From Candidatus Bipolaricaulia bacterium (GTDB lineage Bacteria > Bipolaricaulota > Bipolaricaulia > JBHIAT01): 11,923 nt of DNA. This document shows, in pieces, positions 1 through 11,923 of the stretch. The notes beneath the pieces were generated by a model, which had not been told where the DNA came from, searched no databases, and worked only from the letters and a program-made list of their open reading frames with translations. Numbering within the stretch: position 1 is the first letter of the stretch; each line of letters opens with the position of its first letter. The stretch covers positions 1 to 11,923 of the forward strand of contig JBHIAT010000115.1 in the NCBI GenBank assembly GCA_046758705.1, read 5' to 3'. The position numbers and the translations under genes are program-made.

Positions 1-18
1 GGCTGGACTTGAAGTAAA

Positions 19-276
19 GTTACAATCCCCTCCTTATCGGGTCAAGTTTTGCAACGCCAGCGCGTCATTGAACTTCCTGGCGCCCTCGTCAGTAACAATC
101 CCCTCCTTATCGGGTCAAGTTTTGCAACTTCCGCCACCATCACCAATGCCTATGCGTTGTGGGTGGAGTAACAATCCCCTCCTTATCGGGTCAAGTTTTG
201 CAACATGCTAATTCGTTAATGGACTTCCGCGTCGAGACGGTAACAATCCCCTCCTTATCGGGTCAAGTTTTGCAAC
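19..276 (-). CRISPR. CRISPR array, leader-proximal end, truncated by the left edge of the window; repeat (minus strand) GTTGCAAAACTTGACCCGATAAGGAGGGGATTGTTAC
   Basis: Four 37-bp repeats at 19-55, 92-128, 168-204 and 240-276, separated by unique spacers of 36, 39 and 35 bp, plus a partial spacer at 1-18. Repeats 2-4 are identical; repeat 1 differs at one base (+ strand GTTAC vs GTAAC). Orientation is inferred from the ATTGAAAC-like 3' end (ATTGTTAC) and the leader-like sequence to the right. Confidence 0.97.
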
Positions 277-541
277 TCCTCCCTCCAGAGCCCGCTACTG
301 CAGCAGACCCTGAAGGCGGTTTTCAAGCACCTATAGTTTTCTACAGGCAAAATCACTTGCACATCCGTCCAAAAGTGACGCAAATTCCCACCCCATCCGG
401 TACGAGCATCTCCATCCGGAGGTAAATCGTTGAATCTTCGTTTGCATAAGGCTTTGAGATCCCTTCCAGGCCAAATGCGTCATTTGCTCCAGGAGGTGCT
501 CGCAGAAACGCAAGCAGACCCGCTTCTCATCTGATATTCAC

Positions 542-553
542 TTGTCAAAGACC
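542..553 (-). promoter_or_regulatory. boxA-like (Nus antitermination) element
   Basis: Minus strand GGTCTTTGACAA resembles rrn boxA (GCTCTTTAACAA / GTTCTTTGAAAA types) and lies ~30 nt downstream of the candidate -10 box. Confidence 0.5.
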
Positions 554-582
554 ACCTTGATCCTCCCAGTGCAATCTATAAC

Positions 583-612
583 AATCTATCCCTATCTTTG
601 ATCCACTGTCAA
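583..612 (-). promoter_or_regulatory. Candidate sigma70 promoter for the CRISPR array
   Basis: Minus strand TTGACA (612-607), 18-bp spacer, TAGATT (588-583). Confidence 0.5.
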
Positions 613-792
613 ATCTAATCCCAGAACCACCCCCTCACCTGTCCTGACCCAAATACTGACTCTTTGTCGACGTGGATATAAGACTTTGTAGAGAAGTTAT
701 CAATGTTCACATGGTTAAGCTTTTCTACCGAAAGATCACTTTCAAATATTCTCTTTGCCTCTCAATCTGTTCAAAATTTTCAGTCCACTGTT

Positions 793-945
793 CCTCCTAC
801 ACTTGGTCAAATATGACCACGTTCGGTCCGCTGCCTTATCGCGGCCAGCGGAGTTTCGCTCTCGGATTGACCCGCCGGATCCCTGCCCTTGTCCACCAAA
901 GGCGCAGTCGGTCGGGTGTCTCGAGTCCTGCCCGGAACAGTCGAT
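793..945 (-). ncRNA. Putative omegaRNA (reRNA) scaffold overlapping the tnpB 3' end; the guide would read into the flank from 792 downward
   Basis: Stacked hairpins: TGGTCA-aata-TGACCA (804-819), TCCGCTGCC..GGCCAGCGGA (827-852) and an imperfect long stem at 870-917. They lie under a Pro/Arg-rich, apparently unstructured TnpB tail and end at the right end of the element. TnpB omegaRNAs are known to occupy this position. The 5' boundary is approximate. Confidence 0.65.
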
Positions 946-2441
946 GGACCCTCGATCCCCACCTCAGCCAGAACGGCCAGATTCACCTGCTGTGGCGGGA
1001 AGTCGAATGCCCACCGTTCCAATCGGCGACGAAACCTGCTTTCTAGGACCGCCCGAACCCGCTCCTTCGGCGTCCAAAGGAGGATCTCGGAATCATGCCA
1101 GCGGTCCAGCAGGTTCAAGGCGGCCACCGCGTCACTATCTCCACCGTGTCCGCAAAACAGACACTGAAACCTGTTCCCACGGCGGTTCTGGCGGTGGACG
1201 AACCCACAGTGAGGACACGTTTGGCTGGAGTAGCTCGCGTTAACCTGCTCATGGTGGGAACCTCCCGCCGACGCCTTGAAGGCGACACGGTCCTTGATCA
1301 AACCGCGAACCCACAAGCTGACAATACGGCTCAGCCGCCTGGATTTCCATTTACCGTTTAAGTAACGAAGATTCTCATGCACCACCACGGCTGGTCCTTT
1401 AGCCTTCCAAAAAGCATTCAGGGCGCGATTGATCTCGTTGGCCAACGTCTGGCGCATCTTGCGGCGCTGCTTGCGCTGCTTCTCCCTACCCAGATTGTAC
1501 TTGCGGATGCGTCGTGCCTTGGCTTTATCACCTTTTTCTTCGGCCCGGCGGGCTAACGCGCCCAGCTTATTGCGCTTGCGGCCTTTGTCGCATATCTGGT
1601 CCGAGTAGTTCGCGAGTCGCTGGCCCAGACCCTCACCCCAACGGTCGCCATCAGAGTCGGTCATGACTTCAGTTACGCCCAAGTCGACCGCCTTCACCTT
1701 CGACCCGTCGGTGACTGGCTCAGGCTTCACCTCGATAGCCCGATGTACTTCGATGCGTCGCTTTTCCTCATCCCGAACGATGCGCAGGTTGCCTTGGATG
1801 GTTCCCCACCCGGTGAGGGGCAGGATCAGGCGCCGGCCAGGCGTGAGGGTCATGATCGAGATATACTGGCGACCGTTCTGCTCAAAGACTCGATACATCT
1901 CAGCATCCAAAGCAAAGCTGCGCACCTGCCCGACCCGGGGATCTTTCCCGCGCTTGCGCCTGATGACCCGGCGCAGATAGGCAACTACTTGGCGCTGCTC
2001 CCTGCGGCTGATGGAGAAGTGCAGCGGAGACGGTGCCCTGCCACTCACCAGTTGAGCCATGTGCCGGGACGACTTCAGCACCCAGAACGCATAGCGGGCT
2101 TGCTCGTCGGTGAAGTGGTCCCGGTTTTTCTGAGCCATCACCAACGGGCGCAGGGCTTCGGCCAGGGCTAGCCACTGCCGATCTATCGTCTCGATCGCAT
2201 CCTGGAGCGCCAGCTTCCACATGCGAGCTTGCAGGCCGAAAGGACTCTGGTAGCCAGTTGCCAGCAGTTCGTCCCGCACCTGGTGGTGGTTCTGGTAACG
2301 GGCGAAGATGGACGGGCGGCCGTATTCTACCAGGAAGCGGTCCTTCTGAGCCACATAAGCGGCGGCGATCTGGTGCACGGTCTGCCACTTGCCCTGGTTC
2401 AGGGAGCGGCTGTAACGCTTGATGGTTCGTCTCAAACTCAC
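807..2441 (-). CDS. tnpB: RNA-guided endonuclease TnpB (IS607-associated), ~544 aa
   Basis: RuvC-I AVDLG, RuvC-II VVHENL, zinc finger CPHC..CLFC after YSSQT, RuvC-III DSDAVAALN. Start moved from the ORF-track 2498 to GTG at 2441, which overlaps the tnpA stop (GTGA) and follows GGAGGGAG. Confidence 0.93.
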   Translation of the reverse strand: MSLRRTIKRYSRSLNQGKWQTVHQIAAAYVAQKDRFLVEYGRPSIFARYQNHHQVRDELLATGYQSPFGLQARMWKLALQDAIETIDRQWLALAEALRPLVMAQKNRDHFTDEQARYAFWVLKSSRHMAQLVSGRAPSPLHFSISRREQRQVVAYLRRVIRRKRGKDPRVGQVRSFALDAEMYRVFEQNGRQYISIMTLTPGRRLILPLTGWGTIQGNLRIVRDEEKRRIEVHRAIEVKPEPVTDGSKVKAVDLGVTEVMTDSDGDRWGEGLGQRLANYSDQICDKGRKRNKLGALARRAEEKGDKAKARRIRKYNLGREKQRKQRRKMRQTLANEINRALNAFWKAKGPAVVVHENLRYLNGKWKSRRLSRIVSLWVRGLIKDRVAFKASAGGSHHEQVNASYSSQTCPHCGFVHRQNRRGNRFQCLFCGHGGDSDAVAALNLLDRWHDSEILLWTPKERVRAVLESRFRRRLERWAFDFPPQQVNLAVLAEVGIEGPSTVPGRTRDTRPTAPLVDKGRDPAGQSESETPLAAIRQRTERGHI

Positions 2442-3094
2442 TGCTCTCCCTCCAGGATGCATACCATCTGTCGAGCCAACTCTGTGACCTGTCTGCATTT
2501 GTAGGAACGCCGGCCGTAGAACTTCGCGCAGAAGTGTTGCACGATGGCGATGAGGTCTTCGGTCAACTCGTGCATGAACTCTGGATCTGGCTTCTCAGAG
2601 CGATTGATGACCACCAGTTTGGTGCCGTACTGAGCGAAGATGGCTTCGATGAGATCGTAGCCGAAGCGGGCCAGTCGGTCTTTGTGAGCCACAATGACCT
2701 TCTCCAGGCGTCCGTTCAGCGCCTTGGTGATGAGCTGGCGGAACTTCGAGCGGCGATAGTTCAAGCCGGATCCGATGTCCGTCCAGACGTCGTCATAGGA
2801 TTGCCCGGCCCCGATGCAGAATTGCTTCAACGTCTGCACTTGGTTCTCCAGGTCATCCTTGTGGGCACGGCTGGAGACGCGGGCATAGAGGATGACCTTT
2901 TTGTTTTTGTCACCAGGGGAGGAAGGCAACGGTTGACCCAGGAACTTACGCAGGGTGGTCTCACTGTAGCGACGATGGCCTCCCTGGGTGCGGATGTCTG
3001 GGACGAGCTTGCCTGACTTATCCCAGCGACGGAGGGTGATGATAGAAACCCCGAGCATCTCGCTGACTTGGCCGATGGAATAGTAGCGATCCAT
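2438..3094 (-). CDS. tnpA: IS607-family transposase TnpA (MerR-type HTH + serine recombinase), ~218 aa
   Basis: N-terminal YSIGQVSEMLGVSIITLRRWDKSGKL..RTQGGHRRY helix-turn-helix; catalytic YARVSS; DIGSGLNY, HKDRLARFG and ELTEDLIAIVQHFCAKFYGRRS motifs. Start moved to ATG 3094 because the ORF-track TTG start (3157) is the -35 box of its promoter. Confidence 0.95.
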   Translation of the reverse strand: MDRYYSIGQVSEMLGVSIITLRRWDKSGKLVPDIRTQGGHRRYSETTLRKFLGQPLPSSPGDKNKKVILYARVSSRAHKDDLENQVQTLKQFCIGAGQSYDDVWTDIGSGLNYRRSKFRQLITKALNGRLEKVIVAHKDRLARFGYDLIEAIFAQYGTKLVVINRSEKPDPEFMHELTEDLIAIVQHFCAKFYGRRSYKCRQVTELARQMVCILEGEQ

Positions 3095-3128
3095 TATATG
3101 AATATCTTTTCCGTATAGATATGTACAT

Positions 3129-3157
3129 ATTATATCACATTTTAGCTTGACTGTCAA
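3129..3157 (-). promoter_or_regulatory. Consensus sigma70 promoter at the IS left end driving tnpA-tnpB
   Basis: Minus strand TTGACA (3157-3152), 17-bp spacer ending in TGA (extended -10 TGn), then TATAAT (3134-3129). Confidence 0.85.
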
Positions 3158-3276
3158 ACCTCCTCGATTCCGACGTTCTCGGGGCTGATGCTCGGCTGGC
3201 GCACCAGCGTTTTGAGATCGTTGAGATGCTTTTCGCTACGGCGATCGATCTCTCGATAGATCCTTTCTAACTGCAC
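3154..3276 (-). pseudogene. 5' fragment (39 host codons) of an M20/M25/M40-family metallopeptidase-like gene, truncated by the IS
   Basis: Not in the ORF track. AAGGAGGT (3288-3281) precedes GTG at 3276, giving MQLERIYREIDRRSEKHLNDLKTLVRQPSISPENVGIEE, then V-stop inside the IS. The pattern L..LVRQPSIS....GI.E is typical of M20 peptidase N-termini. Confidence 0.7.
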
Positions 3277-4381
3277 GTTCACCTCCTTGAAGCGCTTTGA
3301 TGATCCGGTGGTTGGCAACCGGGAACGCATAATCCGGGAGTTCCTCCAACCGAACCCAACGCCAGTCGTCGCAGCCGAGGGGCTGAGGGGTTCCCTGTTG
3401 ATAGGTGCAGTGGAAGACGTGGAGGGTGACGTGGAAGTGAGTGTAACCGTGCTTCACGACGATGAACGGCTGTGGCTGGCTCACGGACACCTCGATGTCC
3501 AGTTCCTCTTTCACCTCGCGGACCAGACAGCGATCGAGCGACTCGTCGGGTTGGCGCTTCCCACCCGGGAACTCCCACAGTCCACCGAGCAGGCCGTTCT
3601 CAGGTCGTTTGGCGATCAGAACTTTTTCATCATGCCAGATGATCCCGACGGCGATGTCATAGTGGGGTCGATCTCGCTTCGGGGTGTTGATCGGCAGTTC
3701 TGCCTGAAGCCCCAGGCGGTTGGCCTCACACAGCTCTGCGACCGGACAGATCAGACACCGGGGATGCTTGGGAATGCAGACGGTCGCCCCGAGCTCCATG
3801 AGCGCCTGGTTGAACTCCCGCCCTTGGCCCCGAGGCAGGAGCGTTTTGGCAAGCGTCCACAGCTGCCTCTGGGTGCCGGCCTCTGTCACAGGCCGATCGA
3901 TCGCGAACAGGCGGCAGAGCACCCGCCGCACGTTGCCGTCAACGATCGCCTCGTCCTTCCCGAACGCGATGCTCAGGATCGCCCCGGCGGTGTAGCGGCC
4001 GATCCCGGGAAGCTTCAGCAGTTCCGTTCGACTGTCAGGGACCTGTCTACCATAGCGTTCCACGATGATCTTGGCCGCCCTGTGGAGGTTTCGGGCTCGG
4101 GCGTAGTAGCCGAGGCCTTCCCAGACCTTCAACACCTCTTCCAGCGAGGCGTCCGCCAGCACCTCCACGGTGGGGAACCGTTCGATAAATCGCTGGTAAT
4201 AAGGACGTACTGTTTCCACTTGAGTCTGCTGGAGCATGGTCTCGGAAACCCAGATCTGGTAAGGATCCTGGGTTCGCCGCCACGGGAGATCGCGGCGGTG
4301 ACGTTCGTACCAAGCCATCAGCCTGTCGGTCAGTAGCTTGCGATCTTGGGGATCCGGGATTGAGGCGATCGGGTCGTGCAT
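3236..4381 (-). CDS. mutY: A/G-specific adenine glycosylase MutY with a C-terminal Nudix (MutT-like) domain
   Basis: RDLPWR, WVSETMLQQTQV, WEGLGYYARARNLH, HhH motif LPGIGRYTAGAI, VDGNVRRV, 4Fe-4S motif C-x6-C-x2-C-x5-C and C-terminal GLWEFPGG. Confidence 0.97.
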   Translation of the reverse strand: MHDPIASIPDPQDRKLLTDRLMAWYERHRRDLPWRRTQDPYQIWVSETMLQQTQVETVRPYYQRFIERFPTVEVLADASLEEVLKVWEGLGYYARARNLHRAAKIIVERYGRQVPDSRTELLKLPGIGRYTAGAILSIAFGKDEAIVDGNVRRVLCRLFAIDRPVTEAGTQRQLWTLAKTLLPRGQGREFNQALMELGATVCIPKHPRCLICPVAELCEANRLGLQAELPINTPKRDRPHYDIAVGIIWHDEKVLIAKRPENGLLGGLWEFPGGKRQPDESLDRCLVREVKEELDIEVSVSQPQPFIVVKHGYTHFHVTLHVFHCTYQQGTPQPLGCDDWRWVRLEELPDYAFPVANHRIIKALQGGERAVRKDLSRDRSP

Positions 4382-4389
4382 GGGCGTCT

Positions 4390-5310
4390 CTATTTGGATC
4401 CCTCCCCTGTGCTCAACGCCGGTTTGATATGCTTACGCCACAGCGCATCCGCCTGCCGATGGGCCCGCAACCGGTCCGAGCGGACCACGAAGGCAAGCAA
4501 CAGCAGCCCCAGGCCGGTCACGATCACGCTCCCCTCCGGTCCGAACGCCCCGCCGGTGAGCCAGGCAGGTTCGGAGCGGTCCACTGCCACCTGGAGCAAC
4601 CCGACCCGAAACGAGATCCCGCTGACGGGGAACGCGTACAGGTGTGCCTGGAGGAAGTTCCAGGTGAAATGGAAGCCAATGGGCAACCACAAGGACTTCG
4701 TCCTGATGTAAGCGACCGCCAGACCCAGGCCGACGAGGCCGGTATTGATGGTACCGATCGGTGTGGCGTTGGGATTGCTGTAATGCAGGAGTCCGAAGAC
4801 GAAGGACAGGGTGACGGCCGCTGGCCAAGTCCCCAGTCCTTCGATGAGGGACTGGAACAGGTATCCCCGGAAGGTGATCTCCTCAAACGCGCCCAGGCTC
4901 AGATGGGCGAGCAGATAGAGCGAGAAGATTTTGAGCAGTTCACGGGATCCGATCGCGGCCCAGGAGACCGTAATCCCACCCATTAAATAAGCGATCCCGA
5001 AGAACAACGAGATCATCAGCAGGCCGAGTAGGGCCCCGAGTGAGAACTCCCGGCGCCAGTGAGGATGGAACCACAGCCCGACGGAGTCGAACGGCCGCCG
5101 GTCAACATAGCGGGCCATCAGGTAAGTGATCCCCAACACCGGGATCAGCAGATAGCTCTCGACGATGAGGAGATCATCGAGCGACGATGACGCTTCGGGC
5201 AGCTGGATGAGCGAGAAGAGCAGGGTGAAGAGGAAGAGCAGGAGCGCGATAAACAAAAGCGCGCGCCATCCGGCCCGCATCCTCCGCTCATTAAAGAAGA
5301 TCGATCTCAT
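4390..5310 (-). CDS. CPBP-family (CAAX/Abi) intramembrane glutamic endopeptidase
   Basis: Multiple hydrophobic helices with EEITFRG, FGLLH and HFTWN motifs and C-terminal WLTGGAFGPEGS. Likely start is ATG 5310 (MRSIFFNERRMRAGWR); the ORF track extends to 5397. Confidence 0.9.
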   Translation of the reverse strand: MRSIFFNERRMRAGWRALLFIALLLFLFTLLFSLIQLPEASSSLDDLLIVESYLLIPVLGITYLMARYVDRRPFDSVGLWFHPHWRREFSLGALLGLLMISLFFGIAYLMGGITVSWAAIGSRELLKIFSLYLLAHLSLGAFEEITFRGYLFQSLIEGLGTWPAAVTLSFVFGLLHYSNPNATPIGTINTGLVGLGLAVAYIRTKSLWLPIGFHFTWNFLQAHLYAFPVSGISFRVGLLQVAVDRSEPAWLTGGAFGPEGSVIVTGLGLLLLAFVVRSDRLRAHRQADALWRKHIKPALSTGEGSK

Positions 5311-5406
5311 CTTGGAAAACGCTTCCGAATCGATGTCACATCCTGATTTCGGCTTCTCCAACTTTGGATTGTAAGCAATTGACCCGGCATGTCGCAAGGG
5401 GGGACC

Positions 5407-5435
5407 TTTACCGGCGATGGGGTATGTGATACACT
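5407..5435 (+). promoter_or_regulatory. Candidate sigma70 promoter for the glycosyltransferase
   Basis: TTTACC (5407-5412), 17-bp spacer containing an extended -10 TG (5427-5428), then TACACT (5430-5435). Confidence 0.45.
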
Positions 5436-5452
5436 GGACAGTGGTTCAAGGA

Positions 5453-6466
5453 ATGCGAATCTGTCTCTATCTGGAAGCGGAGAACATCTCTGTATCAGGC
5501 ATCTTGACTGCCTTCAGACAGCAGGTCAAGGCGTTGAAACAGGTCGGGGTGGAACTCACCACCGACTTTAAGGACGATCACGACCTGCTACACCTCCATC
5601 GCTACGGCCCGAAATCCCTCTATTACCTGAAGCGAGCGAGGACCCGGGGGAGGCCGGTGGTGATCACCGCTCACAGCACCGCCGAGGATTTTCAAAACAG
5701 CTTCACACTCTCGAACACATTCGCCCCGTTCATCGGCTGGTATCTGCGATTCTTCTACGAACAGTGCGATCATATCATCACCCCCTCGGAGTACACCAGA
5801 GATCTGTTGAGACGTCATGGCACACGGGGCGAGTTCTCGGTGGTCAGCAACGGTGTTGACCTGGAGTGCAATCGATTCTCCGCGGAGAAGCGTCGTCGGT
5901 TTCGGGAGACGTGGGGTTTGGAAGGGCCAGTTGCCCTCTCCGTCGGCCGGGTCTTTCCCAGGAAGGGGGTGATCGACTTCATTAAGGTTGCGGCCCAGCT
6001 TCCGGAGGTCACGTTCGTCTGGTGTGGGCCGCGGCTCAACCGACTGATCTCCTTCTATCCGGAGATGGAACGCCGGATCCGCGAGCGATCGCCCAATGTG
6101 CGGTTTTTGGGGTTCGTTCCCGACATCCAGGCGGCCTATGCCGCCGCAGATGTCTTCTTCTTCCCGTCCCACGAGGAGAATCAGGGGATCGTGCTGTTAG
6201 AGAGCGCCGCCATCGGGGTTCCGATCGTGACCCGGGATCTCCCCGTCTACCAGGGATGGCTGGTCCATGGGGAGAACTGTTTCAAGGGAAAGACGGTCGA
6301 GGAGTTTCGAGATCACATCCAGAAGTTGCTCGATGACGAGGAACGGCGCACCGCCTTGGTCGCCGAGGGGAAACAACTCGCTGAAACGCACCGTCTGGAG
6401 CGAATCGGAGGGCAGCTGGTGGCGGTTTACCGGTCGCTGTTGGACGGTTCGGCCGAGTCTGGCTGA
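5453..6466 (+). CDS. GT4 (GT-B fold) glycosyltransferase, similar to diglycosyl-diacylglycerol synthases
   Basis: MRICLYLE..SGILTAFRQQVKAL, HSTAEDFQNSF, ITPSEYT, SNGVD, PRKGV and the E-x7-E motif (EENQGIVLLE). Start at ATG 5453 is preferred over 5417 because the candidate promoter overlaps 5417. Confidence 0.88.
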   Translation: MRICLYLEAENISVSGILTAFRQQVKALKQVGVELTTDFKDDHDLLHLHRYGPKSLYYLKRARTRGRPVVITAHSTAEDFQNSFTLSNTFAPFIGWYLRFFYEQCDHIITPSEYTRDLLRRHGTRGEFSVVSNGVDLECNRFSAEKRRRFRETWGLEGPVALSVGRVFPRKGVIDFIKVAAQLPEVTFVWCGPRLNRLISFYPEMERRIRERSPNVRFLGFVPDIQAAYAAADVFFFPSHEENQGIVLLESAAIGVPIVTRDLPVYQGWLVHGENCFKGKTVEEFRDHIQKLLDDEERRTALVAEGKQLAETHRLERIGGQLVAVYRSLLDGSAESG

Positions 6467-6982
6467 TCAGCGGGGACCGTTCCCCAGCTGCCTTGCATCT
6501 TGGATAAACTCGCTGACCACCCCTCTGAACCTTCGCCAGTCGAGGATCAACGCCAGGACGATCCAGGCGATGAAGATATAGGCCGCCTCCGGAGCTTCCA
6601 GATAGGCGATCACCAACGGAAGCACCACGAGCGGCAGAGCGAACAGCTCTGTGATCGCTTTGGATCGCGACTTGATCATGAAGATCCCGGCGATCACGGT
6701 GTAGATGAGAGCGGGCAGCGCGGGAACGAATCCGGCGAGCACCATGTAGACGAGGCCGGCGAGGACCATCACCATGTCGAATGGAAAGTCCTTGTCACTG
6801 ATCCAGGTGGGCTCTTCTGAGCTCCGTTTGGCCAGCCGGCCATCCAGGATGTCCGTCGTCCAACCGAAGATCGTCAGAAAGACGACCGCTTCCAAAGCGC
6901 GCTTTCCGGCGAACCCCAACAACAGAATGATGAGAGCGATACCCCCTCGAGAAAGCGTCAATGTATCCGCGAGACGCCTCAT
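6467..6982 (-). CDS. CDP-alcohol phosphatidyltransferase family membrane protein
   Basis: ADTLTLSR, then TDILDGRLAKR...DFPFD (DxxDGxxAR..DxxxD signature) and about five hydrophobic segments. Likely start is ATG 6982; the ORF track extends to 7051. Confidence 0.82.
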   Translation of the reverse strand: MRRLADTLTLSRGGIALIILLLGFAGKRALEAVVFLTIFGWTTDILDGRLAKRSSEEPTWISDKDFPFDMVMVLAGLVYMVLAGFVPALPALIYTVIAGIFMIKSRSKAITELFALPLVVLPLVIAYLEAPEAAYIFIAWIVLALILDWRRFRGVVSEFIQDARQLGNGPR

Positions 6983-7053
6983 GACATTTTGCCCCTTGAC
7001 TCTCATTTTTGTTATTATACCGTACTCCGACCTCGAATGCCACCCCGTCATCC

Positions 7054-7083
7054 TTGATCTTCTCTATCTCCCTCCCGTAGAAT
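7054..7083 (+). promoter_or_regulatory. Candidate sigma70 promoter for the trpBA-aro operon
   Basis: TTGATC (7054-7059), 18-bp spacer, TAGAAT (7078-7083), 33 bp upstream of the trpB ATG. Confidence 0.45.
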
Positions 7084-7116
7084 ATTTCCATAGTAGACGT
7101 TAGGATGTGCTGACCT

Positions 7117-8361
7117 ATGAAAAGTGGAACCAAGGTGGAGAATCATCGGGGGAGATCTCCGGAAAAACTCTCGACCCTGCCGGAGACCGGATGGTTCGGA
7201 GAGTACGGGGGCCGATTCTATCCGGAGGCGTTGATGCCGGCCCTGGAGGGGCTTGAGGAGGCGTATACGGCCCTCCAGGACGACGACGCGTTCCGGCTCG
7301 AGCTGCGCCGCTACTGGGAGGAGTATGAAGGACGTCCCTCCCCACTATATAAAGCGAGCAACCTGAGTGAATATGCCGGCGGGGCGAAGATCTATCTCAA
7401 GCGGGAGGACCTGATCCACGGCGGTGGCCACAGCCTCAACAACGCGCTGGGCCAGATCCTGCTCGCCAAACGGATGGGCAAAAGACGGGTGATCGCCGAG
7501 ACCGGATCGGGTCGACACGGGATCGCGGTGGCGATGGCTGGGGCTCTGCTTGAGGTCGAGGTCGAGATCTTTATGGGGGCCATGGATTTCGACGCGCGTC
7601 GCGCGGAGATCGATGAGATGGAGATGATTGGAGTCCGGGTGCACCGGGTTTCGGACGGTAGAGGAGGGTTGACAGGGGCGATCAACACGACGTTGCGTGT
7701 CTGGATGCAGGACCTGGAAACGACCTATTATCTGCCGAGCACCGCTGTCGGGCCGCATCCCTATCCGATGATCGTCCGGAACTTCCAGAGCGTTATCGGA
7801 GATGAGATCAAAGGTCAGATACTGAGAAAGGAGGGCCGGCTTCCGGACCTGTTGGTCGTCTGCGTCGGCGGCGGAGGCAGCGCCATCGGGACCTTCTATC
7901 CGTTTGTCGACGATGAAGCGGTGAGGTTTCTGGGAGTGGAGGGCGGAGGGCAGGGTCTGGAAAGCGGCCGTCATGCGTCCAAACTGGTTGCCGGGAGTGT
8001 CGGGGTTCTCTACGGGGTGAAGACCTACCTGCTCCAGGACGACAGCGGACGGGTCGTTCCCCCCCGCAGCCTTGCGGCCGACCTCACCTATCCAACGGTC
8101 TCCCCGGAGCTCTCGTTCTACAAAGAGATAGGACGGGCGGAGTATATCTCCGTGACCGATGAGCAAGCGATGGAGGGTTTTCGATCTCTGGCACAGCTGG
8201 AAGGCATCCTGCCTGCCCTGGAGTCTGCCCATGCGATCTATGCCGGCCTGGAGCGGGCAAGGCAGATGGAGCGCGATCAGGTGGTGGTGCTCACCGTGTC
8301 GGGCCGGGGGGAGCGGGATATCGGATTGCTGAAGATGAAGACCGCAGGGTTGGGACCATGA
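7117..8361 (+). CDS. trpB: Tryptophan synthase beta-subunit homologue lacking the PLP-binding lysine (probably not a canonical TrpB enzyme)
   Basis: Full-length TrpB1 motifs: FGEYGGRF, GRPSPLY, IYLKREDL, IAETG, GPHPYPMIVRNFQSVIG, EGILPALESAHA, SGRG. The canonical HTGAHKINN reads HGGGHSLNN here. Confidence 0.9.
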   Translation: MKSGTKVENHRGRSPEKLSTLPETGWFGEYGGRFYPEALMPALEGLEEAYTALQDDDAFRLELRRYWEEYEGRPSPLYKASNLSEYAGGAKIYLKREDLIHGGGHSLNNALGQILLAKRMGKRRVIAETGSGRHGIAVAMAGALLEVEVEIFMGAMDFDARRAEIDEMEMIGVRVHRVSDGRGGLTGAINTTLRVWMQDLETTYYLPSTAVGPHPYPMIVRNFQSVIGDEIKGQILRKEGRLPDLLVVCVGGGGSAIGTFYPFVDDEAVRFLGVEGGGQGLESGRHASKLVAGSVGVLYGVKTYLLQDDSGRVVPPRSLAADLTYPTVSPELSFYKEIGRAEYISVTDEQAMEGFRSLAQLEGILPALESAHAIYAGLERARQMERDQVVVLTVSGRGERDIGLLKMKTAGLGP

Positions 8362-9146
8362 GCGACATCGGGCTCAAGTTTCGAGAGCTGAAGGAGCGGG
8401 GGGAACGGGCACTGATCGTGTATCTGGTCGCCGGAGATCCTTATATCGAATACAGTCGCGAGTTTATCCGAGCACTTGAGGCAGGGGGTGCCGATATGAT
8501 CGGAATCGGGGTTCCTTCCTCCCAATTGATCGTCGAGAGCCCGGTGGTCTGGGATGCACACCTCAGGGCGCTCAACGCCGACATCACCCTCCAGGATGTG
8601 TTAAACCTGATCGAGGAGGTGCGAAGGACGTCGGAGATCCCCATCATCCTGATCAGTTACTATAACCCAATCCTGAAAATGGGCGAGTGGATGTTCATGG
8701 AGCGTTGTGGGGAGCTGAAGGTGGACGGGGTGATGGTCGTGGATCTCCCCCTGGAAGAGGGCGAGGACTACAGTGAACGGGCACGGCGCAACGGGATCGC
8801 CCCGATCTTCTCACTGTCACCGCGATCCGGGTCGAACCGTATTATGGCGATCGGGGCGCGGAGGAACGGGTTTTTACACCTCATCGGCGTGGAGATGGAT
8901 GAACAGGGGGCAGCTCAAACTTGGATCGGAGAGCTGCGTCCCCAGCTTCCTGAGCGGCTGCCTCTGGTGATCGAATGTCGAGGCACGAGCATCGACCAGG
9001 CCGGAATCGCGGCACTACTCCGTTTGGGTGTCGACGGGGTGATCATCTGGGATGCTCTCGTTGAGCGGATCGGCCGGGGAGAGAACCTGGAGCAGATCCA
9101 GTGGTACATCGGTGAACTGAAGGGTGGAACGACGATCGGCGGATAA
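8358..9146 (+). CDS. trpA: Tryptophan synthase alpha-subunit homologue with a degenerate active site
   Basis: 262 aa, ATGA overlap with trpB; RALIVYLVAGDP, GGADMI, RAL, PIILISYYNPI and VDGVMVVDLPLEE motifs. The catalytic segment ELGxPFSDPxADGP reads GIGVPSSQLIVESP. Confidence 0.88.
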   Translation: MSDIGLKFRELKERGERALIVYLVAGDPYIEYSREFIRALEAGGADMIGIGVPSSQLIVESPVVWDAHLRALNADITLQDVLNLIEEVRRTSEIPIILISYYNPILKMGEWMFMERCGELKVDGVMVVDLPLEEGEDYSERARRNGIAPIFSLSPRSGSNRIMAIGARRNGFLHLIGVEMDEQGAAQTWIGELRPQLPERLPLVIECRGTSIDQAGIAALLRLGVDGVIIWDALVERIGRGENLEQIQWYIGELKGGTTIGG

Positions 9147-9209
9147 CAGGGGACAGGTGCCCGCCATCGTACTCCGTGGCTGCGGACGAGGCTGGAGTGG
9201 AGTTGGAGT

Positions 9210-9770
9210 ATGGCCCCAATCATGAACGTGAACGAGAACATCTATCTGATCGGTTTCATGGGTGCAGGAAAGAGCACTGTGGGATTGTTGTTGGCCGAGC
9301 GCACCGATCGAATATATGTCGATACCGATCAGTTGATCGTGGAACAGGTTGAGAGATCGATCGCCGCGATCTTTGCCGATAACGGTGAGAAATACTTCCG
9401 GGATTTGGAATCTGAGATCATTAAAGAGATCTCACGCCAGGAAGGGCTGGTGGTGGCCCTCGGCGGGGGAGCCCCGATCCGCCGCAGGAACTGGGGACGG
9501 ATCGAGCGAACCGGGGTCAGTGTCTATCTCATGGCGAAGCCGAGGACGCTCCTCGAGCGAATCGAGACTGAGGGTGAGGGACGGGAAGAACGGCCGTTGC
9601 TCGCTGGGTTGAGCCGCCAGGAGAAGTTGGCAAGGATCGAGGAGATGCTCTATCAGCGCGCTCCCTATTATATGCAGGCGACGCTCATTGTCCCCAACGA
9701 GCACCGTGCCCCGGAGATGGTCGTCGACGAGATCTTGAGTGGGTTGGCCGAGCTGTATGGCGAGGATTGA
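9210..9770 (+). CDS. aroK: Shikimate kinase
   Basis: NIYLIGFMGAGKSTVG (Walker A), DTD, GEKYFRDLE, LGGG, RPLL and RAPYY. The start could alternatively be ATG 9222. Confidence 0.96.
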   Translation: MAPIMNVNENIYLIGFMGAGKSTVGLLLAERTDRIYVDTDQLIVEQVERSIAAIFADNGEKYFRDLESEIIKEISRQEGLVVALGGGAPIRRRNWGRIERTGVSVYLMAKPRTLLERIETEGEGREERPLLAGLSRQEKLARIEEMLYQRAPYYMQATLIVPNEHRAPEMVVDEILSGLAELYGED

Positions 9771-10882
9771 CCGACACCGACATGGGACGAATCGATGTCG
9801 TGCTCAGCGAACCGGACGAGCGAAGCTATCCGATCTACATCGGGAACGGCCTGTTAGGTGCGGTGGGGTCCCACTATCGTGATCACGGCCTCGGGCCTCG
9901 GACGGCGATCATCACCGACGTGACCGTTGAGCGGCTCTATGGCACCGGGATCGCGGGTTACCTGGCGGATGCGGGCGTCCAGGTCGATACGATCGCGGTT
10001 TCGACCGGAGAGACGGCCAAGACGTTGGCCACGGCTGATACCGTCTATGACGCTCTGATCACCGGAAGGCATGAGCGAAGCTCAACGATCATCGCGCTCG
10101 GGGGCGGGGTGATCGGTGATCTGGCCGGGTTCGTCGCCGCCACCTTCCTACGCGGTCTCCCACTGGTTCAGATTCCCACCACATTGCTGGCTCAGGTGGA
10201 CAGCAGCGTCGGTGGGAAGACGGGGGTCAACCACCGCCTGGGGAAGAACCTGATCGGCACTTTCTACCATCCTCGGTTTGTGCTTATCGATCCCCAGGTG
10301 TTAAGCACGCTGCCCGAGCGGGAGCGCTGGGCAGGGCTGGTTGAGGTGATCAAGTACGGCCTGATCCGGGATGAGCAGCTGTTTCGGCTGCTGGAGTCGC
10401 AGTTGGAAGGGCTGGCTGGCCTCCAGGACGGTCGAACGCTGAACCAGGTGATCGAGACCTGCTGCCGGATCAAGGCGGAGGTGGTCGGTCGGGACGAACG
10501 GGAGCACGGGCTGCGCCGCATCCTGAACTTCGGCCACACCATCGGACACGCTCTTGAGGTGGCCACCGGATACGAGCGGCTGAGGCACGGGGAGGCGGTT
10601 GCCCTGGGGATGTGGGCCGAGGCGTGGTTGTCCCATCGGGAAGGCCTGTTGAGCCAAGCAGAGTTGGCTCGGATCGAGGATCTTTTGGATCGGGTGCCGG
10701 TTCCTGACCTCGCTGAGATCGATGCAGGGCAGTTAATGGATCGGATGCGTTCGGATAAGAAGGTCGAGGCGGGAAGGATCCGGTTCGTGCTGCTTGAACG
10801 AATCGGAGAGGCGATTGTCCGAGAGGTGAACGACGCCCGCATCCTGGAAGCGATCGAACGCCTCCAGCAAAAGGCAAAATGA
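9767..10882 (+). CDS. aroB: 3-dehydroquinate synthase
   Basis: [65 protein letters not shown] and HGEAV. The TTG start overlaps the aroK stop; ATG 9782 is an alternative. Confidence 0.97.
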
Positions 10883-11325
10883 AGCGAATTTTGGTCGTTC
10901 ATGGACCGAACCTGAACCTGCTCGGCGAGCGGGAACCCGGGGTTTACGGAGACCGGGGCCTGAGGGAGTTGAACGCGATGATTGAGCGGTTCGCCGAGGT
11001 GCAGGGGCTGCAGGTTCGCATCTATCAATCGAATCACGAAGGCCGGATTATCGACCGCATCCACGCGAATCGACGCTGGGCCGACGGGATCGTCATCAAC
11101 CCGGGCGCGTTCACCCACTACAGCTACGCGATCCGTGATGCAATCGCCGCCGTCGGGCTGCCGACGGTCGAAGTCCACCTCTCCGATATCGACCGCCGGG
11201 AACCGTTTCGCCGCATCTCGGTGATCGCCCCGGTCTGCATCGAGCAGATCTCGGGGAAGGGCTTCGACAGTTACATCGAAGGGATTCGAACCCTGCTTGA
11301 CCAGGACAAGGGTCTGCTCGTTTGA
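10879..11325 (+). CDS. aroQ: Type II 3-dehydroquinate dehydratase
   Basis: [39 protein letters not shown] and EVHLS..REPFR; ATGA overlap with aroB. Confidence 0.97.
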
Positions 11326-11346
11326 GGTTTGAGATTCAACCGTACA

Positions 11347-11856
11347 TCATGGCTGCGAGGCATCGTCGGAGGTGAACGGCAGGGATGAGACCACCAGGGA
11401 CGAGCCCTCTTCAGAGATTCCCTGAAGGGTGAAGAAGCCAAGCCGCGCCTCGATCGCATACTTGAAGTTGCCGCGATCGGTCCCGTACAGCTCCCCGGAG
11501 TTTGGATACATCCCTTTGATATCGAGGATCCGGCCGTCCGCGGCGATGAACGCGATCTCCAGGGGAGCGAGCACATTGTTCATGTGAACTTGAGCATCGA
11601 TCTCCACTTCGAAGACGAACAAGATGATCGTCTCCTCGATCACCGTCTTGGGGATGTACTGGAATCCAGCGTACCATTCGTGGGGCTCATCGGCGACTCG
11701 GACGGTCATCCGGATCACTTCGCCCGCGTCGTTGATCATCTCGATCTCGGCCGGTTCCATCGCCTCCAGGATGCCGAGTCCGGCCGGTTGGGCCGTTGTC
11801 ACACCCGAAAATGCAACCCCAATTCCGAACAGAATCAGCAGGACATTGTTCGTCAT
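11347..11856 (-). CDS. DUF192-family exported protein
   Basis: Signal-peptide-like N-terminus; VRVADEP..WYAGFQ, ILFVF, HMNNVLAPLEIAFIAADGRILDI and YAIEARLGFF match the DUF192 pattern. ATG 11856 follows AGGAGGAG. Confidence 0.8.
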   Translation of the reverse strand: MTNNVLLILFGIGVAFSGVTTAQPAGLGILEAMEPAEIEMINDAGEVIRMTVRVADEPHEWYAGFQYIPKTVIEETIILFVFEVEIDAQVHMNNVLAPLEIAFIAADGRILDIKGMYPNSGELYGTDRGNFKYAIEARLGFFTLQGISEEGSSLVVSSLPFTSDDASQP

Positions 11857-11923
11857 CTCTTTCTCCTCCTTATTGCCGGTCAATACACCGGACTTCAGTC
11901 CGCGTGATCCGGTATGCTACGAT

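Follow-up and report, generated by a model that had tools for sequence, protein, structure and literature searches.

A tryptophan synthase-derived gene pair without the beta-subunit catalytic lysine in a Bipolaricaulia genome

What becomes of a tryptophan synthase whose beta subunit has lost the lysine that holds its cofactor? The question is raised by contig JBHIAT010000115.1 of a Candidatus Bipolaricaulia bacterium (assembly GCA_046758705.1), of which positions 1 to 11,923 were analyzed; this whole stretch is referred to below as the window. It contains a trpB-like gene in which a serine codon stands at the position of the lysine that forms a Schiff base with pyridoxal 5'-phosphate (PLP), betaLys87. 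Substrate channeling and allostery are classically taught on tryptophan synthase, and none of its catalytic residues has been studied better than betaLys87. The serine codon had been pointed out in a preliminary description made from the DNA letters. New here are an adjoining TrpA paralogue that appears to be dead, a canonical tryptophan operon elsewhere in the same genome, and a lineage of lysine-less pairs in the same class. The two genes are suggested to encode an inert alpha/beta complex that descends from tryptophan synthase and has been retained for some purpose other than catalysis, a reading that we consider modestly probable.

The TrpB-like protein and its TrpA-like partner

Translation of 7117-8361 on the forward strand gave an uninterrupted frame of 414 amino acids with REDLIHGGGHSLNN, in agreement with the preliminary description. 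The protein scored 496.9 bits against the TrpB1 profile TIGR00263, an alignment suggested earlier as a check, and passed the cut-off of 392.45; the canonical copy on contig C19 of the same genome scored 602 bits. In phmmer comparisons with the solved chains 5ey5_B (LBCA TrpB) and 1v8z_A (Pyrococcus furiosus TrpB), Ser106 was found without gaps opposite the Lys of the H-K motif, which upholds the reported replacement of the PLP lysine by serine (AGC, 7432-7434). Catalytic residues are given below in Salmonella numbering, mapped by gap-free alignment; residue numbers of the window protein are higher by 19 as far as Glu350 and by 18 close to the C-terminus. Because Ser106 replaces the PLP lysine, the protein is best regarded as a TrpB1-family homologue that is predicted not to be a functional member of the family. 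Its fold is predicted to be that of TrpB: the AlphaFold2 model had a mean predicted local distance difference test score (pLDDT) of 89.7 and a template modeling (TM) score of 0.89-0.97 against P. furiosus TrpB structures.

Besides the lysine, several other residues of the active site were replaced, and all of the changes listed in the preliminary description were present. These included Gln114 to Arg (GSGRHG), Asp305 to Thr (Thr324, in AADLTYPTVSP), and Asp381-Lys382 to Glu-Arg (GRGDKD to GRGERD), as well as a phosphate loop that changed from GGGSN to GGGGS through Ser235 to Gly and Asn236 to Ser. The equivalents of His86, Glu109 (Glu128), Thr110, Glu350, Ser377, and the GGG of the phosphate loop were retained, and the earlier statement that Glu109, Glu350, and Ser377 are kept is thus confirmed. 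Conservation of 97% or more across 107 Lys-type relatives was found at 154 columns; the protein deviates at 31 of them, known catalytic and allosteric positions included, and this number exceeds chance. Within the COMM domain, whose limits follow the Salmonella literature, 15 of the 41 conserved columns were changed, with R141A, N145E, R148E, K167T, D168G, E172T, and D176V among the replacements. Hence, the earlier observation of active-site changes stands, but the changes are not confined to the active site.

A sequencing or assembly error at codon 106, already considered unlikely in the preliminary description, was ruled out by the agreement of two further samples together with the 31 differing conserved columns. 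Logan contigs from these samples, both belonging to one hydrothermal-vent study, span the codon and carry it in the same form. The contig of sample X2 covers 7117-8029 with two differences and that of sample X3 covers 7117-9146 with five, none of which falls at 7432-7434. The best-matching sample, X1, may be the one from which the genome came.

The trpA-like gene immediately downstream also passed its curated profile, with 161.1 bits against TIGR00262 (cut-off 102.35), compared to 222 bits for the canonical copy. An alignment to 5ey5_A and relatives revealed the replacements Glu49 to Gly, Asp56 to Gln, Asp60 to Glu, and Gly61 to Ser, a six-residue gap in loop 6, and the disappearance of the phosphate-binding motifs (GFGIS to RGTSI and VGSA to IWDA). 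AlphaGlu49 and alphaAsp60 are given as the catalytic residues of the alpha reaction in the excerpted text of PMC9512447. The trpA-like protein of the window has neither, whereas all six Lys-type partners compared keep Glu and Asp, and it is predicted to be a catalytically dead TrpA paralogue. Its start codon sits within the stop codon of the trpB-like gene in an ATGA overlap, and the two genes are likewise predicted to be translationally coupled.

A complex prediction for the two proteins yielded an interaction prediction score from aligned errors (ipSAE) of 0.87, as opposed to 0.01 for the best of three controls; of 80 solved complexes 58 attained this value, and of 110 mismatched pairs two did. 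The runs agreed in at least 95% of contacts, the partner pLDDT was at least 87, and the interface was the canonical alpha/beta interface. The two proteins probably still assemble in the classical manner.

Tryptophan synthesis in the source genome would be carried out by an operon on contig C19, where trpB2-trpE-trpG-trpD-trpC-trpF-trpB-trpA were found in one row and where trpB has the lysine. The GC contents of C19 and the window contig are 58.3% and 58.6%, respectively, and tetranucleotide usage is typical of the bin. A canonical trpB and a trpB2, which the preliminary description had suggested looking for, are thus both present on C19. With the lysine absent from the window copy and a full operon elsewhere, the earlier conclusion that the trpB-like gene does not encode a functioning subunit of tryptophan synthase is sustained, as judged from sequence.

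Lysine-less pairs in related genomes

Replacement of betaLys87 was observed repeatedly outside the window. Among 119 other listed homologues, 25 had a residue other than Lys at this position (Thr in 19, Ser in two, Ala in two, Pro in one, and Asn in one). A detached lysine-less pair was defined as a trpB-like gene directly followed by a trpA-like gene, located apart from trpEGDCF, with a non-Lys residue at position 87 and clustering with other detached pairs in a tree free of the active-site columns; the window pair falls under this definition. In a survey of 40 genomes from this class, all seven members of family f4 and genome G011 carried a detached trpB-like/trpA-like pair. Position 87 is occupied by Thr in G003 and G039, by Ala in G031 and G035, and by Ser in G015 and G027, with Lys in G007 only. 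In six of the seven f4 genomes, the lysine-less pair is the sole TrpB/TrpA. G011 carries Thr and additionally a full trpEGDCFBA operon. The carriers of lysine-less pairs are related vent and subsurface bacteria.

A phylogeny of concatenated beta and alpha sequences, built without the active-site columns, placed the detached pairs in one group (Shimodaira-Hasegawa-like approximate likelihood ratio test support of 83), in which 14 of 15 rows were non-Lys and from which the operon-type Lys rows were excluded; the long branch of the window pair blurs its placement inside the clade. On a tree of 141 beta rows (107 Lys and 34 non-Lys), the Lys/non-Lys trait changed at least eight times. Thr was present in 22 of the 34 non-Lys rows, and Ser, Ala, Pro, Asn, and Leu also occurred. 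A single origin of the lysine-less rows with the Lys-type G007 outside was rejected by an approximately unbiased (AU) test on the concatenated set (p 3e-60), in which the group was named after the tree was seen. The lysine has either been lost multiple times, or lost early and then regained through a reversal from Thr to Lys. Synonymous codons at position 87 were also varied, with ACG, ACT, and ACC for Thr, GCC, GCG, and GCT for Ala, and TCC and TCG for Ser.

The database proteins P0034 and P0035 differ solely by K106T; in proteins closely related to them, this helix also carries F107L, V110A, and I111L. A metagenome scan for the DNA of these two proteins found close relatives of the Thr/Ala type only; seven of 80 loci were non-Lys, and one pattern carried the Thr motif. 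P0034 and P0035 may represent a recombining or maintained Lys/Thr dimorphism, and such a dimorphism may mark two functional states that are maintained in populations.

Each GTDB species, represented by a single genome, was also scanned for the motif carrying a codon other than Lys; this returned 30 loci, of which 27 were trpB. Detached pairs accounted for 14 of these, in metagenome-assembled genomes (MAGs) labelled Bipolaricaulota, Acetothermia, Fraserbacteria, or Thermotogae. Locus L080 (Bipolaricaulota label) is a long-branch Thr-type pair with a weak trpF-like gene in front; its alpha partner has Phe and Ala at the positions of Glu49 and Asp60, and the GFGIS motif is gone. The remaining 13 were scattered singles from other phyla (L056, L060-L063, L066, L068, L071, L073, L076, L079, L082, and L083), with Thr in seven, Arg in three, and Cys, Gly, and Ser in the others, and at least eight of them adjoin other trp genes. 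These singles may reflect either genuine alleles of auxotrophs or errors in the MAG consensus. For example, L076 (Methanoregulaceae label) has HGGSHSLNN in a frame of 633 amino acids.

Two further observations concern trpB copies in other genomes. A lone TrpB-like copy in which Leu replaces the lysine, and beside which no trpA lies, was found in G023 (G023:C5:238025-239191; L052 7969-9261). Its branch is the longest of all (0.98), 42 of the 154 conserved columns are changed in it, and the same genome has a canonical trpD-trpC-trpB-trpA. Additionally, the operon-type trpB matches at G001:C17:29419-30624 (one TGA and one TAA) and G037:C34:5474-6658 (one TGA) contain in-frame stops at their edges, probably as a result of read-through into the flanks.

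The lysine-less pair appears to be independent of the tryptophan pathway. Searches of the seven f4 genomes returned no TrpC, TrpD, or chorismate-binding enzyme, and G003 and G007 were the only members of this family with matches to type 1 3-deoxy-D-arabino-heptulosonate 7-phosphate (DAHP) synthase and chorismate synthase. Because the f4 genomes are 90-96% complete, these enzymes are properly described as not found in those searched. Five of the genomes (G039, G035, G031, G015, and G027; 90-93% complete) had no match to TrpC, TrpD, a chorismate-binding enzyme, type 1 DAHP synthase, or chorismate synthase, and they are apparently aromatic amino-acid auxotrophs, although annotation would credit them with a tryptophan synthase.

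The ratio of nonsynonymous to synonymous substitution rates (dN/dS, Nei-Gojobori) between lysine-less genomes was 0.055-0.14 for the beta-like and 0.06-0.10 for the alpha-like genes, and it was 0.06-0.19 for the neighboring glycosyltransferase family 4 (GT4), amidotransferase, aroB, and aroQ genes. These values point to purifying selection on the lysine-less relatives. For the relatives, the beta-like ratios also rule out that avoidance of polar effects on the aro genes is all that has kept the frames open.

Conserved positions of the beta-like proteins were changed far more often in non-Lys than in Lys rows: Ala112 in 22 of 34 versus two of 107, with Ser as a recurrent replacement, Gln114 in 13 versus two, Asp305 in 10 versus one, and Asp381 in 15 versus one. 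The number of changed columns among the 154 ranged from three to seven in G003, G035, and G039 to 14 in G011, 18-25 in G027 and G015, 31 in the window protein, and 42 in the Leu-type copy of G023. Similarly, both Glu49 and Asp60 were lost from the alpha partner in three of 14 lysine-less pairs (the window, G015, and L080), and the Gly of VGSA was changed in 10 of the 14, whereas all six Lys-type partners keep these residues. Erosion at conserved columns appears to follow the loss of the lysine, with the alpha partner eroding in parallel. The replacement residues vary by lineage (Gln114 to Arg, Glu, Asp, Asn, or Ala; Asp305 to Thr, Cys, Ala, or Asn), which argues for a relaxed catalytic constraint rather than one shared new chemistry. 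A relocated catalytic lysine was also considered and rejected, since the Lys-enriched columns 64, 268, 337, and 385 track clade and none includes the window protein.

Retention as an inert complex and its alternatives

Under the reading proposed here, the trpB-like and trpA-like proteins would be two catalytically inert subunits of one tryptophan-synthase-derived pair. The pair belongs to the detached-pair lineage, in which the lysine is replaced repeatedly and purifying selection persists even in genomes where no tryptophan or shikimate pathway was found. A candidate mechanism is that of a ligand-binding module, with conformation or scaffold, and not turnover, as the selected property. This mechanism is favored because most PLP contacts survive and because the K87T mutant binds Ser and Trp and locks the alpha/beta complex in the closed state. 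A broader version holds that betaLys87 has been replaced repeatedly and directionally, mostly by Thr, and that the inert complex has been kept for a new non-enzymatic function in the absence of aromatic synthesis, with the window copy as its most derived member. We put this version forward tentatively, as a possibility that falls somewhat short of probable. The preliminary description had left a choice between a maintained pseudo-enzyme and a different chemistry; the dN/dS values of the relatives favor the former, and the lineage-dependent replacements at Gln114 and Asp305 speak against the latter.

Several points weigh against retention as an inert complex. The proposal of ligand binding is carried over from a mutant made in the laboratory, and in the window copy the capacity to bind PLP may be reduced or lost through the changes Ser235 to Gly and Gln114 to Arg. 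BetaLys167 and alphaAsp56 form an allosteric salt bridge; both residues are lost in the window pair, whose subunits probably no longer communicate in the classical way. As TrpAB complexes have been solved, the predicted complex may merely reproduce known structures, and it speaks of likeness and not of binding. In addition, the window sequence sits on a long branch, with lengths of 0.64 (141-row tree) and 1.19 (concatenated tree), and none of 8000 scored candidates from a collection of 5.8 billion clusters exceeded 61% identity to the window protein. For want of a protein above this identity, selection on the window copy is read from a list of 40 strain differences, and some decay of this copy may have taken place on its long branch. 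Finally, a correlated evolution of changes at Ala112, Gln114, Asp305, and Asp381 with the loss of the lysine was not upheld by independent pairs (n=7, median p 0.5).

Slow decay would explain the locus differently: redundant beside the canonical operon, the pair would be an eroding relic whose frames are open by chance or through polarity on aroK-aroB-aroQ. The long branch, the 31 changed columns, and the loss of both active sites fit such a course, as do the long-branch lysine-less copies of G011 and G023, which also occur in genomes with a canonical trpB-trpA operon. The COMM region accumulates nonsynonymous changes as well, since 10 of the 15 listed in a comparison with a strain diverged by approximately 10% (one run) fall at residues 146-191. 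However, the same comparison showed 20 synonymous versus 15 nonsynonymous changes over 310 versus 932 sites, a per-site nonsynonymous/synonymous ratio of approximately 0.25 among the 40 differences listed, with 49 more outside the list. Both frames (414 and 262 amino acids) are open, the ATGA overlap is intact, and no indels were seen in four assemblies, the diverged strain included. The trpB-like model folds confidently. Selection against polarity alone would keep the frames open but would not lower dN/dS, and relatives without a canonical copy show the low ratios given above. The frameshifts and the dN/dS near 1 that the preliminary description had named as signs of simple decay were thus not encountered in these comparisons, and we regard slow decay as unlikely.

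A different or residual chemistry is improbable as well. The trpB-like protein might bind PLP non-covalently or use another cofactor, catalyze a reaction that needs no lysine, or perform a slow beta reaction rescued by free amines; ammonia reportedly rescues the K87T enzyme in part. The retained equivalents of His86, Glu109, Thr110, Glu350, Ser377, and the GGG of the phosphate loop, together with the recurrent change of Ala112 to Ser in non-Lys rows, would be in line with such an activity. In contrast, residue 87 is Thr, Ser, Ala, Pro, Asn, or Leu depending on the lineage, and the replacements at positions 114 and 305 are chemically unrelated, which does not suit a single new catalytic design. 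None of the columns enriched for Lys in the non-Lys rows offers the window protein a substitute lysine, and the alpha partner also lacks its catalytic residues.

Action in trans, in which the beta-like protein makes canonical TrpA release indole or the alpha-like protein activates canonical TrpB or TrpB2, is judged quite unlikely. Precedents exist in plant TSB-like (excerpt of PMC12727527) and Chlamydia TrpA (excerpt of PMC8376405), the source genome and G011 each hold both a canonical operon and a lysine-less pair, and the g10 relatives of the window protein have the change of Glu109 to Ala that defines plant TSB-like in the former excerpt. Six of the seven f4 genomes, however, lack a canonical partner, TrpC, and TrpD, and hence a supply of indole-3-glycerol phosphate; the window copy has lost four residues of the activation network (Lys167, Asp168, Arg141, and Asp305) to replacement; and the coupled partner is a dead alpha-like protein rather than canonical TrpA. 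A plant-like release of indole by the coupled partner itself is ruled out for the window, where the trpA-like protein lacks both Glu49 and Asp60.

Gene neighborhood and comparison with known systems

Parts of the gene neighborhood of the window (Table 1) recur among its relatives, namely a CPBP protease upstream, aroK, aroB, and aroQ downstream, and GT4 glycosyltransferases nearby. For example, G011 (L044/L057) shares the upstream CPBP gene and the downstream aroK-aroB-aroQ order with the window. A role of the pair as regulator or scaffold of the shikimate enzymes was considered and is weakened on two grounds: the aro genes adjoin only some lysine-less pairs (the window, G003, G011, L072, and L077), and five pair-bearing genomes have no match to DAHP synthase or chorismate synthase. 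An Rfam search of the window at gathering thresholds gave no matches, and thus no known leader or riboswitch upstream. The samples listed as carrying this stretch included none of RNA. The divergent open reading frame (ORF) of 194 amino acids had no match at the relatives' loci examined. Additionally, an IS607-type pair was observed at 807-3157 on the reverse strand.

Table 1. Features of the window, with positions counted from its first nucleotide.
Feature	Position	Strand	Basis
TnpB/Cas12f-like protein, long (563 aa)	807-2498	-	NF040570, 91.8 bits, slightly under the cut-off of 100
Serine recombinase with MerR-type helix-turn-helix	2438-3157	-	PF00239 and PF00376
194-aa ORF, divergent from the trpB-like gene	6467-7051	-	Sub-threshold CDP-alcohol phosphatidyltransferase, 19 bits versus cut-off of 22
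Promoter-like site (TTGATC, 18 nt, TAGAAT), 34 nt 5' of the ATG	7054-7083	+	Consensus scan only; no evidence of function
trpB-like gene (414 aa, P0001); fold of TrpB1 type, Schiff-base lysine for PLP absent	7117-8361	+	TIGR00263 and PF00291
Codon 106, AGC (Ser), equivalent of betaLys87	7432-7434	+	Alignment to solved TrpB chains
COMM-domain equivalent (residues ~121-208), strongly remodeled	7477-7740	+	Conserved-column comparison
trpA-like gene (262 aa)	8358-9146	+	TIGR00262, 161.1 bits, and PF00290; ATGA start/stop overlap with the trpB-like gene
aroK (shikimate kinase)	9210-9770	+	PF01202, E 1.8e-42
aroB (3-dehydroquinate synthase), 4-nt overlap with aroK	9767-10882	+	TIGR01357, 389.7 bits
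aroQ (type II 3-dehydroquinate dehydratase), 4-nt overlap with aroB	10879-11325	+	TIGR01088, 179 bits

A literature search found no description of a natural bacterial TrpB1 without the lysine, nor of a pair in which both subunits are dead. In the excerpted text on the first cultured member of the phylum, a trpA-aroK-aroQ gene run appears in a figure legend without comment (10.1101/2025.11.21.689855), and the report of this cultured strain makes the question testable. The genes of lysine-less pairs pass the curated TrpB and TrpA thresholds, and pathway reconstructions from MAGs of Bipolaricaulota/Acetothermia that count them would for this reason wrongly infer tryptophan synthesis or indole salvage. 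If the reading of an inert complex is true, the locus would represent a bacterial two-subunit pseudoenzyme complex, and the short list of pseudoenzymes known to have arisen from PLP enzymes would gain a bacterial member. The natural removal of the lysine under selection, often by the same change of Lys to Thr that traps the closed state, would amount to an evolutionary experiment on the non-catalytic value of the complex.

Among known systems, the TSB-like proteins of core eudicots are TrpB paralogues that have lost tryptophan formation, have been retained, and pair with a TrpA-type subunit, according to the excerpt of PMC12727527. The window protein resembles them in kind, as a putative TrpB-derived pseudoenzyme, without being a member of that group. 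In the same excerpt, the equivalent of Asp305 is changed, as it is in the window protein, and the Glu109 to Ala change is shared by the g10 relatives. In contrast, plant TSB-like differs from TSB by Glu to Ala and Asp to Glu and is modeled with PLP, while the window protein lacks the lysine, retains Glu109, and has Thr in place of Asp305. The TSA partner is described there as active and as releasing indole, whereas the alpha-like protein of the window is without Glu49 and Asp60 and several related genomes are without a source of indole-3-glycerol phosphate.

A second comparison is provided by Chlamydia trachomatis, in which the pathway is incomplete with only trpBA present, and TrpA, though inactive, is kept in the complex under partly relaxed purifying selection (excerpt of PMC8376405). 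The likeness lies in the retention of an inactive alpha subunit as a component of a complex. However, the excerpt describes chlamydial TrpB as fully active in indole salvage and TrpA as keeping its catalytic residues, whereas in the window the beta subunit is without its lysine and both subunits appear dead.

The closest laboratory counterpart is the Salmonella mutant betaK87T, whose external aldimines with Ser and Trp were obtained with the alpha/beta complexes in the closed state (Rhee et al., 1997, as cited in the excerpted text of PMC9512447). This mutant carries the same replacement as 22 of the 34 natural non-Lys rows, and in it the fold and the complex are preserved while catalysis is abolished. 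The structures 2TRS, 2TSY, and 1UBS of the Protein Data Bank (PDB), which appeared in the phmmer comparison under a separate sequence of their own, are presumably the entries for K87T. The mutant is an engineered single change, whereas the natural proteins add Ala112 to Ser as well as changes at Gln114, Asp305, and Asp381, and the window protein differs further from it by having Ser instead of Thr and a remodeled COMM domain.

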